This document shows, in pieces, positions 28,806 to 30,433 of a DNA stretch of 64,000 bases. A model generated the notes under the pieces. That model did not search any database and was not told the origin of the DNA. It saw only the letters and a program-made list of their open reading frames with translations. Source of the DNA: Escherichia phage ECO07P1; sequence record OP172784; one strand, 5' to 3'. Both the position numbers and the translations under genes were made by a program. Each line of letters begins with the position of its first letter. Within the stretch, counting starts at the first letter, position 1.

Positions 28806-28878
28806 TGGGAATTAGCCAAGTTGGTAAGGCACTGGATTTTGATTCCAGGATGCAAAGGTTCGAGTCCTTTATTCCCAG
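28806..28878 (+). tRNA. tRNA-Gln (anticodon UUG)
   Basis: Cloverleaf by eye: acceptor TGGGAAT/ATTCCCA, anticodon loop TTTTGAT, T-arm GGTTCGAGTCC. Confidence 0.85.
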
Positions 28879-28879
28879 C

Positions 28880-28966
28880 GCGAGAATGGTCAAATTGGTA
28901 AAGGCACAGCACTTAAAATGCTGCGGAATGATTTCCTTGTGGGTTCGAGTCCCACTTCTCGCACCA
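28880..28966 (+). tRNA. tRNA-Leu (anticodon UAA), long variable arm, CCA encoded
   Basis: Acceptor GCGAGAA/TTCTCGC, anticodon loop CTTAAAA, T-arm GGTTCGAGTCC, 3' ACCA. Confidence 0.85.
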
Positions 28967-28971
28967 AATTT

Positions 28972-29045
<74 letters not shown>

Positions 29046-29055
29046 ATTTAATTTA

Positions 29056-29129
29056 CTCCGTGTAGCTCAGTTTGGTAGAGCGTCTGCTTTGGGAGCAGAA
29101 TGTCGCAGGTTCAAATCCTGCCGCGGAGA
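29056..29129 (+). tRNA. tRNA-Pro (anticodon UGG)
   Basis: Acceptor CTCCGTG/CGCGGAG, anticodon loop CTTTGGG, T-arm GGTTCAAATCC. Confidence 0.85.
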
Positions 29130-29131
29130 CT

Positions 29132-29221
29132 GGAGGCGTGGCAGAGTGGTTTAATGCACCGGTCTTGAAAACCGGCAGTCGCTCCGGCGACTCATAGGTT
29201 CAAATCCTATCGCCTCCGCCA
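29132..29221 (+). tRNA. tRNA-Ser (anticodon UGA), long variable arm
   Basis: Acceptor GGAGGCG/CGCCTCC, anticodon loop CTTGAAA, T-arm GGTTCAAATCC, 3' GCCA. Confidence 0.85.
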
Positions 29222-29226
29222 GTTTT

Positions 29227-29302
29227 GCTGATTTAGCTTAGTAGGTAGAGCAACTCACTTGTAATGAGAAGGTCGGCGGTTCGATTCCGTCAATCAGCAC
29301 CA
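29227..29302 (+). tRNA. tRNA-Thr (anticodon UGU)
   Basis: Acceptor GCTGATT/AATCAGC, anticodon loop CTTGTAA, T-arm GGTTCGATTCC, 3' ACCA. Confidence 0.85.
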
Positions 29303-29303
29303 A

Positions 29304-29378
29304 GGCCCTGTAGCTGGAAGGTTCAAGCAAGCGACTCATAATCGCCAGATGGTGGTTCAATTCCACCCAGGGCCACCA
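29304..29378 (+). tRNA. tRNA with CAU anticodon (Ile2 lysidine-type by T4 analogy, or Met)
   Basis: Acceptor GGCCCTG/CAGGGCC, anticodon loop TCATAAT, T-arm GGTTCAATTCC, 3' ACCA. Confidence 0.75.
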
Positions 29379-29391
29379 AATTAAGAATTAA

Positions 29392-29478
29392 GGGGAGTTA
29401 TCCCGTAGAGGTAGCGGTGTGGACTGTAAATCCATTGTCATTGCGACTCGGGTGGTTCGACTCCATCACTCCCCACCA
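29392..29478 (+). tRNA. tRNA-Tyr (anticodon GUA), class II long variable arm
   Basis: Acceptor GGGGAGT/ACTCCCC, anticodon stem GTGGA/TCCAT with loop CTGTAAA, T-arm GGTGGTTCGACTCCATC, 3' ACCA. Confidence 0.75.
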
Positions 29479-29482
29479 ATTT

Positions 29483-29557
29483 GGATGTGTAGCTCAATGG
29501 CAGAGCGATCGCCTGTTAAGCGATTGGTTATAGGTTCGAATCCTATCACGTCCGCCA
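29483..29557 (+). tRNA. tRNA-Asn (anticodon GUU)
   Basis: Acceptor GGATGTG/CACGTCC, anticodon loop CTGTTAA, T-arm GGTTCGAATCC, 3' GCCA. Confidence 0.8.
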
Positions 29558-29561
29558 AATC

Positions 29562-29637
29562 CGAGGCATAGCTCAGAAGGAAGAGCAAGGACCTTCTAAG
29601 TCCTAGGTCGTAGGTTCGATCCCTACTGCCTCGACCA
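29562..29637 (+). tRNA. tRNA-Arg (anticodon UCU)
   Basis: Acceptor CGAGGCA/TGCCTCG, anticodon loop CTTCTAA, T-arm GGTTCGATCCC, 3' ACCA. Confidence 0.85.
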
Positions 29638-29653: not shown

Positions 29654-30004
29654 ATGAAAGGTAATGTTTATTTAGTAGTTCATGATTTAACATTCTATTT
29701 TAATCATAATGACACTGTTATTTCTGAACGCGTAATTAATTTGCTTTATCAGCACGCAGATTATGTTTATGTCGAAAACGAATACGGTCATTGGCAATTT
29801 CTCAAAAATCGTTCATTTGGTTTAGATGGTTACGAATACTTTGAACGTAAAGACCTTTTAGATAAAATTCCATTATCTACACAATATCAAAATCACAAGT
29901 CTTTACATAAATGCCGTCCAATTCGAAATGTTGAATCTGCGTATGAAGCAATTGATTTGTGGCGTAAACGCCGTGAACAGATTGATGCTTTAAAAGAATA
30001 TTAA
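29654..30004 (+). CDS. hypothetical protein
   Basis: 116 aa ORF directly after tRNA-Arg with GAGGAA Shine-Dalgarno. Confidence 0.55.
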   Translation: MKGNVYLVVHDLTFYFNHNDTVISERVINLLYQHADYVYVENEYGHWQFLKNRSFGLDGYEYFERKDLLDKIPLSTQYQNHKSLHKCRPIRNVESAYEAIDLWRKRREQIDALKEY

Positions 30005-30355
30005 GAAACCGGGTCGCTACCGGTAAGTCGTCGGACTGATGTTCCCTGGGTAAGGACTGGCATTAACAAATCTTTACGATTTGTTAATGTCCCCTTACAT
30101 CACAGCAGAAACGGCGCACCGAATTATCGATTCGAGGAAATATCTTTGCCGTAAGCCGAGTAGCGTTTTTGACGGAACGTTCGGATATGGTCGAGATATG
30201 GCCTTTTAAAAATATTAAGTAGCGTCAACTGCTTAATAACCGGGTTCGAATCCCGGCGTTTCGTACAAACACTTGCCTTAGCAGGTGGAACCCCGACAAG
30301 GTTGCCGCAAGGCTTAGCCCCGACCGAAAGGTTGGGGCTTTTTAGTTTGAATCAC
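30005..30355 (+). ncRNA. putative stable small RNA region (T4 rnaC/rnaD-like)
   Basis: No ORF; higher GC than surroundings; hairpins (TTAACAAATC...GATTTGTTAA), tRNA-like T-arm CCGGGTTCGAATCCCGG, ends in 10-bp GAAA-tetraloop hairpin plus T-run. Confidence 0.4.
30326..30353 (+). terminator. rho-independent terminator
   Basis: 10-bp stem AGCCCCGACC/GGTTGGGGCT, GAAA loop, then TTTTT. Confidence 0.7.
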
Positions 30356-30433
30356 TCGGATAACGCTGTTACGGATAATAACAAAGTAATAAATAATTAA
30401 TAACCAACCGATAGATTATTTCAAGGATTTTAA

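Follow-up and report, generated by a model that had tools for sequence, protein, structure and literature searches.

Probable orthologues of the phage T4 rnaD and rnaC RNAs at the 3' end of the tRNA operon of Escherichia phage ECO07P1, with a predicted tRNA-like four-way junction in rnaC

The window analysed here is a stretch of 64,000 nucleotides from Escherichia phage ECO07P1 (OP172784), and its positions 30001-30344 are the 3' end of the tRNA operon of a Tequatrovirus (T4-like) phage. Most probably (we put it at about 0.85), this region holds the orthologues of rnaD and rnaC, with their conserved structures and operon context. Both are small stable RNAs of phage T4 known since the 1970s, and the locus –T4 rnaD, rnaC, and the operon terminator– is already known. 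It is textbook T4 biology, and its recognition adds nothing new on this phage. The comparison does contribute a structure for rnaC backed by covariation, a candidate contact between kissing loops, and an occurrence map for each RNA. The features, by position in the window, are:

~30001-30120, + strand: rnaD (T4 species 2 RNA), probable orthologue with about 90% identity to T4 rnaD; 5' end uncertain by a few bases
30008-30024, + strand: P1 hairpin of rnaD, ACCGG / GUCGCUA / CCGGU, predicted in every lineage
30027-30033, + strand: 5' strand (GUCGUCG) of the predicted P2 closing stem of rnaD, pairing with 30112-30119 (CGGCGCAC)
30043-30048, + strand: UCCCUG motif of rnaD, in a predicted internal loop between P3 and P4
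30048-30098, + strand: predicted P4 apical hairpin of rnaD, hypervariable, including the inverted repeat 30061-30072 / 30078-30089
30121-30126, + strand: A/U-rich spacer GAAUUA between rnaD and rnaC
30127-30265, + strand: rnaC (T4 species 1 RNA), probable orthologue with 136 of 139 bases equal to T4 rnaC; ends taken from the T4 annotation
30128-30134, + strand: 5' strand (CGAUUCG) of the predicted acceptor-like stem of rnaC, pairing with CGUUUCG at 30257-30263
30135-30206, + strand: predicted long arm of rnaC in the D-arm position, about 70 nt, with apical loop UUGACG at 30169-30174
30213-30238, + strand: predicted hairpin 2 of rnaC, 10-bp stem and 6-nt loop CGUCAA (30223-30228); 8 of the 10 stem pairs changed on both sides
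30240-30256, + strand: predicted T arm of rnaC, CCGGG / UUCGAAU / CCCGG (CCGGGTTCGAATCCCGG), directly abutting the 3' strand of the acceptor-like stem
30266-30315, + strand: conserved 3' trailer with a hairpin at 30270-30287 (CACUUGC / CUUA / GCAGGUG)
30316-30344, + strand: intrinsic terminator of the tRNA/rnaD/rnaC operon, 10-bp stem, GAAA loop, and U tract

At the sequence level, a preliminary description had pictured 30005-30355 as an ORF-free, GC-richer, and structured segment after the tRNA array, likely encoding stable RNA(s), and had guessed at divergent counterparts of T4 rnaC and rnaD or a tRNA-derived fragment. The guess was borne out by the 136/139 match of rnaC and by an alignment over the whole length of rnaD, except for the word divergent, since the two are close orthologues. 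Stable RNAs are present as rnaD and rnaC, but the segment consists of three elements, the third being the trailer with the terminator. It does lie downstream of the array, whose ten tRNA genes occupy 28806-29637, but not directly: a 351-nt ORF (29654-30004; 116 aa, phrog_3355) stands between tRNA-Arg (29562-29637) and rnaD. The longest ORFs inside the segment are only 42 and 34 aa, both with a TTG start (the short ORFs range from 22 to 42 aa, with the one of 42 aa at 30081-30209), and the G+C content is 0.43-0.46 vs. 0.30-0.38 in the protein-coding flanks, so both of those claims hold. The inverted repeat, reported as 10 bp, is present and longer, with perfect 12-nt arms. The T-arm-like element at 30240-30256 proved to be part of rnaC, and the GAAA-tetraloop terminator –10-bp stem and GAAA loop at 30316-30339, then TTTTT– is the terminator of the operon.

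At z = -7.0, the fold of 29996-30350 is far more stable than those of shuffled sequences, in line with the structured segment first proposed. Its parts gave z-scores of -4.5 for 30001-30121 (rnaD, MFE -43.1 kcal/mol), -4.1 for 30127-30265 (rnaC, MFE -50.1 kcal/mol), and -3.8 for 30266-30360. All z-scores were computed against dinucleotide shuffles, and in none of the four segments did a shuffle match the native fold. Two of the checks suggested with the preliminary description were an Infernal/Rfam search and a look at structural conservation in homologous regions. The former found no family for rnaC or rnaD in Rfam 15, either at the gathering threshold or at E <= 10, and homologous loci returned tRNAs only. 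The latter revealed covariation across 17 sequences for rnaC and an architecture shared across lineages for rnaD.

We compared the segment by blastn with 50,697 phage records and obtained matches in 805 of them (678 with at least 80% coverage), nearly all from Tequatrovirus and relatives; rnaC alone as the query matched 746 records and rnaD alone 734. In the T4 genome (NC_000866), rnaD (species 2 RNA) and rnaC (species 1 RNA) are annotated immediately 3' of tRNA-Arg. T4 rnaC (70908-71046) has the same place as in our phage, on the tRNA strand between rnaD and the stretch of trailer and terminator. The sole differences are three substitutions, and two of them fall in hairpin 2 without loss of a standard pair: one turns G.U into A-U, and the other turns U-A into U.G at the loop-closing pair. 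T4 rnaD (71053-71171) aligns with 30004-30120 at about 90% identity over 117 nt, with the differences concentrated in the apical hairpin, where compensatory changes preserve the pairing. Both rnaDs have in common the 5' core (AAGAAACCGGGUCGCUACCGGUAAGUCGUCGGACUGAUG-UUCCCUG), the 3' core (AUCACAGCAGAAACGGCGCACC), and the architecture, and they differ at the 3' end, which reads ...CACCA in T4 and ...CACCG here.

T4 rnaD begins 2 nt after tRNA-Arg, whereas here the 116-aa ORF intervenes and reaches with its stop codon up to, or into, the 5' end of rnaD. This 5' end may differ from that of T4 because an ORF, and not a tRNA, precedes rnaD in our phage. An ORF between tRNA-Arg and rnaD is also found in T2, Kha5h, G4507, and IME537, and in T4 and RB10 rnaD follows tRNA-Arg directly. 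The insertion is a context variant and not a reason against the homology of rnaD.

For rnaD, the predicted structure is conserved and supported by covariation. We folded 24 distinct sequences from six genera and two Vequintavirinae phages. RNAalifold on the all-lineage MAFFT alignment recovered P2 alone because the variable hairpins were misaligned, and thus single-sequence MFE folds were used instead. These predicted the P1/P2/P3/loop/P4 layout in every one of the 24 sequences except L008, which folds differently. P1 presents compensatory changes from A-U to G-C (RB10), C-G to U-A (W70 and Karamvirus), and G-C to A-U (Karamvirus). The core of P2 is invariant in all lineages (GUCGUCG with CGGCG(C)AC), apart from one compensatory change from G-C to A-U in Klebsiella phage 17-11. 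P3 has a wholly different sequence in Karamvirus and Jiaodavirus with the pairing kept, and the P4 position displays at least four unrelated sequence types among phages, each folding as a hairpin. Within the loop, CCCUG is invariant in all the aligned phages (Tequatro-, Dhaka-, Mosig-, Karam-, and Jiaodavirus, and Vequintavirinae phage W70), and the U preceding it is a C in T4 in alignment A6.

A hammerhead-like set of bases in rnaD (CUGAUG...GAAAC...GUC) was also considered and rejected. It leaves no room for stem I, has no Rfam hammerhead match, and is swapped for a covarying helix in Karamvirus and Jiaodavirus.

For rnaC, the covariation supports a model in which the RNA is a tRNA-like four-way junction: the acceptor-like stem is contiguous with the T arm, the arm of about 70 nt replaces the D arm, and the 10-bp hairpin replaces the anticodon arm. 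On the rnaC alignment, RNAalifold predicted 43 pairs and found compensatory changes at 26. By explicit pair counting on 17 sequences from at least seven lineages, 94.2% of the cells were paired, and 28 of the 48 pairs presented changes on both sides, vs. 4-9 in controls with the partners slid by 1-3 columns. For four of five measures, the observed value lay beyond all 500 shuffles.

This covariation extends to each part of the model. The acceptor-like stem has seven positions –five Watson-Crick pairs and two invariant U.U mismatches–, with the helix paired in 100% of the sequences, a change from A-U to G-C in 13 of the 17, and the consensus CGRUUCG/CGUUYCG. In helices 2-5 of the long arm, 17 of 22 pairs changed on both sides, and in KaAlpha, Melville, and PEi20 the distal sequence of this arm is wholly swapped with the hairpin fold kept. 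The middle pair of the T stem is G-C, U-A, A-U, or U-G depending on the lineage, and the loop fits the tRNA T-loop consensus. A covariance model (R1) made from this rnaC alignment scored 149 bits (E = 1e-32) for rnaC as its sole match in the window, and found exactly one copy, at 128-156 bits, in each of the searched genomes with rnaC. Its remaining matches were weak (12-22 bits), and several coincide with mapped tRNA genes.

Neither rnaC nor rnaD is a decodable tRNA. The likeness of rnaC to tRNA (RF00005) consists of a terminal helix of seven positions stacked, in the model, on a 5-bp T stem with a UUCGAAU loop, of its place within tRNA arrays, and of the tRNA genes that appear as weak matches to its model. 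Unlike tRNA, rnaC has neither a tRNA-sized D arm nor an anticodon arm (5-bp stem and 7-nt loop), and it carries the two U.U mismatches in the acceptor-like stem. At the 3' side our phage encodes ...CG-UACAA, with no CCA, and the Marfavirus homologues encode ...CCG-U-CCA (CG-UCCAA), a tRNA-like 3' end. RF00005 had no match in 30001-30355 at the gathering threshold or at E <= 10, and ARAGORN predicted no tRNA or tmRNA in the segment. The only tRNA match was to tRNA-Sec at 30172-30264, with 17.3 bits against a threshold of 47, and rnaC falls short of every tRNA-clan threshold in Rfam. When the search covered all of Rfam 15, including hammerhead, Y RNA-like, GOLLD, and ROOL families, nothing reached the gathering threshold and only scattered, far-sub-threshold matches appeared at E <= 10.

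Other tRNA-like domains that can be compared with rnaC are those of tmRNA, bacterial YrlA, and the mascRNA type. Unlike tmRNA, rnaC has no reading frame for a tag peptide, and Rfam gave no tmRNA match; unlike YrlA, it has no Ro-binding stem. We also rejected the reading of this region as tRNA-Lys (as annotated in G4507) or tRNA-Sec. That reading pairs CGGAACG with CGUUUCG as its acceptor stem, a pairing not maintained beyond Tequatrovirus; the segment involved is replaced in Karamvirus, Gelderlandvirus, and Kanagawavirus, and the partner that covaries is the 5' end, CGRUUCG.

The two apical loops of rnaC are exact reverse complements of each other: UUGACG in the long arm and CGUCAA in hairpin 2. 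Outside the Marfavirus type, both are invariant in every lineage, and it is the stems that covary. The Marfavirus-type sequences (L064, L065, and L071) instead read UUGGCG and CGCCAA, a double change that keeps all six pairs. The changed position of the loop-loop helix (pair 46/103) has A-U in 14 sequences and G-C in three, with 100% complementarity, and the covariation represents one evolutionary event in three sequences of one clade. This pattern suggests that the loops may kiss, be it inside a single molecule or in a pair of molecules. The long arm, at about 23 bp plus internal loops, far exceeds the 10 bp of hairpin 2 in length, so bringing the loops together intramolecularly would require a sharp bend, and a contact between two rnaC molecules is equally possible. 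ColE1 RNA I/RNA II and the HIV-1 DIS are well-known kissing complexes. As in those, rnaC has two 6-nt loops with full Watson-Crick complementarity; in contrast to them, both loops belong to one molecule, and the contact is a candidate one. Our literature search found no description of a loop-loop contact in rnaC.

Two promoter-like elements in rnaC were considered and discarded. TTGACG resembles a sigma-70 -35 box, and the promoter scan gave no site there; promoter-like sites in the region were no commoner than in shuffles. TGCTTAA in hairpin 2 resembles a MotA box, but it is not conserved, and T4 has TACTTAA.

At the operon level, the spacer between rnaD and rnaC has its counterpart in the 6 nt between the annotated T4 genes (AAAUUA). 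In Karamvirus and Gelderlandvirus, AAnnA-like spacers lie between the CCA end of the preceding tRNA and rnaC. The GAAUUA spacer is likely an endonucleolytic processing site, at which the precursor would be cut. Downstream of rnaC, about 80 nt of trailer and terminator (30266-30344) are nearly identical to T4, and the trailer shows almost no variation in Tequatro-, Mosig-, and Dhakavirus, even in Dhakavirus phages without rnaC. The terminator is the only good one on the + strand in the neighbourhood, and Kha5h and G4507 have terminators annotated at homologous sites.

Each RNA has its own distribution among phages. rnaC occurs in Tequatro-, Mosig-, Karam-, Gelderland-, Kanagawa-, Moon-, and Marfavirus and in an unclassified Citrobacter phage; the Marfavirus-type carriers are Klebsiella phages. 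rnaD occurs in lineages with rnaC such as Tequatro-, Mosig-, and Karamvirus, and also in Dhakavirus, Jiaodavirus, and two Vequintavirinae phages. In Karamvirus and Gelderlandvirus, rnaC lies exactly between tRNA-Trp and tRNA-Gly. The rnaD homologues of Karamvirus and Jiaodavirus lie between tRNA-Asn and tRNA-Asp, and those of the two Vequintavirinae phages 3' of a tRNA-Met. In Dhakavirus, rnaC is cleanly missing and rnaD runs directly into the trailer; R1 had zero matches in IME08 and the unclassified CUA3, the two loci of the Dhakavirus type that were searched. Because of this clean absence, rnaC is dispensable for the Dhakavirus lineage. The structural pattern of rnaC had no match among 185,579 representative bacterial and archaeal genomes. 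A metagenome scan gave nine matches of T4-like length, and all seven of the rnaCs extracted were near-identical to the T4 type.

Regarding biogenesis, work from the Abelson, McClain, and Apirion laboratories in the 1970s-80s reportedly implicated RNase P, RNase E, and RNase III in the processing of these precursors, and an acceptor-plus-T-arm minihelix is the classical determinant for RNase P. We propose that rnaD and rnaC would be co-transcribed with the tRNAs and cut from the precursor by enzymes of the RNase E or RNase P type, with the cuts falling in the A/U-rich spacers (GAAUUA here and AAnnA elsewhere). RNase P may recognise the acceptor/T minihelix of rnaC, 3' exonucleases would trim each RNA to the base of its terminal helix, and compact folding would leave metabolically stable products. 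On balance, rnaC would be a tRNA mimic that tRNA-processing enzymes bring to maturity.

In T4, the two RNAs build up late in infection according to a 2022 omics study, which reports a northern assay and describes a probe for RNAC only (PMC9697503); for rnaC, a discrete stable transcript of about 139-140 nt is reported from this assay. Their functions are called unknown in a review and in that 2022 omics study (PMC3014915; PMC9697503), and our own literature search found nothing relevant on the function of rnaC or rnaD. When a T4-like phage was evolved on a semi-permissive E. coli host, all lines gained the same single SNP in rnaD (PMC12685909), which hints at a host-specific role of this RNA. 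We tentatively favour, at somewhat less than even odds, a role of rnaC in trans as a tRNA mimic. It could work by occupying or titrating away a host or phage factor able to recognise the elbow formed by the acceptor and T arms of tRNA, such as a tRNA-targeting defence nuclease or a tRNA-processing enzyme; with rnaD, the operon would have a second accessory RNA. This role was weighted highest because the strictly conserved loops and mismatches exceed the needs of simple punctuation, because rnaC is phage-specific and is gained and lost like phage tRNAs, and because the same rnaD SNP arose in all the host-adapting lines (PMC12685909). A more specific version appears unlikely as a whole: the rnaC fold, locked or dimerised by UUGACG:CGUCAA, would act as a decoy or inhibitor of an elbow-recognising host factor, and rnaD would tune the host range, as would be consistent with the convergent SNP in experimental evolution. 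If true, this version would assign roles to two RNAs that have lacked an explanation for about 50 years. The results point to precise mutants for probing the role of both RNAs.

The main rival to trans tRNA mimicry is a role in cis only, in processing and stability, which we regard as a serious but rather unlikely explanation. The two RNAs would then provide punctuation and 3'-end protection to the polycistronic tRNA precursor, and the stable RNAs would be inactive by-products. At the loci compared, rnaC and rnaD always lie inside tRNA arrays or at their end and on the same strand, rnaC has the acceptor stem and T arm that form the RNase P determinant, and the trailer and terminator are kept even where rnaC was lost; T4 deletions that remove the tRNA region are also viable on laboratory hosts. 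However, punctuation needs neither 6-nt loops that are invariant and co-vary across at least seven lineages nor invariant tandem U.U mismatches within a covarying architecture of 140 nt. The tRNAs of the same array adjoin one another without such structured spacers, and across about 680 Tequatrovirus records rnaC keeps 95-100% identity amid variable neighbouring sequence. Pairing of the loops UUGACG/CGUCAA (rnaC) and UCCCUG (rnaD) with host or phage mRNAs, as small regulatory RNAs do, is a still less probable role. The exposed loop sequences are invariant, the accumulation is late (PMC9697503), and the rnaD SNP was convergent during host adaptation (PMC12685909), all of which would suit such RNAs. 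Nevertheless, the seeds are merely 6 nt long, the rnaC loops complement and co-vary with each other, so mutual pairing explains them better, and there is no Hfq-type module except the shared operon terminator, 50 nt past the mature end of rnaC.

Decaying tRNA pseudogenes or functionless leftovers are very improbable. The T arm and the acceptor-like stem, the automatic tRNA-Lys annotation, and the weak tRNA-Sec match of 17.3 bits do recall a tRNA origin, but both-sided compensatory changes in 28 pairs indicate selection for structure. Besides, the pairing of the tRNA-Lys/Sec reading is not the one conserved in Karamvirus, Gelderlandvirus, and Kanagawavirus, and the RNAs are conserved across phage genera with the rnaC pattern absent from the bacterial and archaeal genomes searched. 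Hardly credible at all is the coding of small proteins, to which the automatic CDS annotations in many records and the existing ORFs of 22-42 aa would point: no reading frame is conserved, indels are of 1-2 nt, substitutions compensate pairs rather than following codon structure, and the T4 products were identified as RNAs (T4 annotation; PMC9697503).

The region is often mis-annotated in GenBank as "hypothetical protein" or "tRNA-Lys". Many records have "hypothetical protein" CDSs placed over the segment, and in the G4507 record, another group annotated the region as a 94-nt "tRNA-Lys". In the records of RB10 and Kha5h, the matched stretch is annotated as rnaD/rnaC.

rnaC is missing from Dhakavirus phage IME08 and from CUA3, an unclassified phage related to it. 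Their loci have the following arrangement:

L007 1192-1330 (IME08): rnaD, trailer and terminator, without rnaC
L058 490-640 (CUA3): rnaD, trailer and terminator, without rnaC

Given the clean junction at the place where rnaC is missing in both phages (…GCGCACCGAA|CACUUGCC…), rnaC looks as if it were a removable module.

For rnaD, homologues were also found outside T4-like phages, such as the one in Escherichia phage W70:

L061 790-893: rnaD homologue, W70 (annotated Vequintavirinae)

Both W70 and A73, likewise annotated as Vequintavirinae, carry the homologue directly 3' of tRNA-Met. Its core is near-identical to the T4 type, and this similarity suggests that rnaD moved horizontally between phage families.

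The 5' side of rnaD varies by the presence of one ORF:

Window 29654-30004, + strand: 116-aa ORF, phrog_3355 match (E = 2e-54)

This ORF separates tRNA-Arg from rnaD in the window and has a TAA stop codon that touches or overlaps the 5' end of rnaD. T2, Kha5h, G4507, and IME537 have it at the same spot; T4 and RB10 lack it at the corresponding spot, tRNA-Arg being followed directly by rnaD. The tRNA array of one Karamvirus (L005) closes with a phrog_3355 gene (2030-2404), and T4 carries the homing endonuclease gene segB elsewhere within the same array.

At the 3' end, rnaC homologues of Marfavirus-type Klebsiella phages encode a tRNA-like discriminator followed by CCA:

L071 700-842: rnaC homologue, ends ...CCG-U-CCA-A
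L064 1725-1868, - strand: rnaC homologue, ends ...CCG-U-CCA-A
L065 12186-12328, - strand: rnaC homologue, ends ...CCG-U-CCA-A

Every other lineage ends in ...CCG-U-ACA-A. The encoded CCA raises the question of whether CCA is added to rnaC post-transcriptionally.

Between rnaC and the terminator runs a trailer (window 30266-30315) that is nearly invariant across genera and contains a hairpin at 30270-30287. The CCCCGAC motif occurs twice, at ~30292 within the trailer and at ~30319; the copy at ~30292 could draw GGUUGGGG away from the terminator stem. The trailer may act as an attenuator or as a site of 3' processing. GAAACG near the rnaD 3' end (30108-30113) perfectly complements CGUUUC of the rnaC 3' strand (30257-30262), and the two are paired when the segment, taken whole as an unprocessed precursor, is folded to its MFE. 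With rnaD and rnaC at separate places, Karamvirus cannot form this pairing, which may be coincidental or else a precursor conformation specific to Tequatrovirus.

In the tRNA arrays of Karamvirus and Jiaodavirus there are additional unannotated gaps of 130-240 nt. Those listed are from the Karamvirus array L005 and from two further arrays of these genera (L062, L063):

L005 126-368, 445-572, 732-945: gaps
L062 477-719: gap
L063 477-706: gap

Between tRNA-Asn and tRNA-Asp, the gap comprises the rnaD homologue and ~130 nt more, with a CCGAAAGU...ACUUUCGG hairpin among them. Since an Rfam scan of one array, L005, gave no match in its gaps, the gaps of both genera may hold more unnamed structured RNAs.

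Public labels for the region are inconsistent across many of the blastn-matched phage records and include 'tRNA-Lys(ttt)', 'hypothetical protein' CDSs, 'gp37', or none, with rnaC/rnaD labelled in only a minority.

L003 1679-1772 (G4507): 94 nt labelled 'tRNA-Lys(ttt)'

Two calls within the tRNA array of the window are these:

Window 29304-29378: tRNA-Met(CAT)
Window 29392-29478: tRNA-Tyr

ARAGORN called the tRNA-Met(CAT) 3' of tRNA-Thr; because T4 is annotated with tRNA-Ile after its tRNA-Thr, we read it as probably a lysidine-modified CAU. Against the Rfam tRNA model, with its threshold of 29, the tRNA-Tyr barely passes at 30.2 bits.
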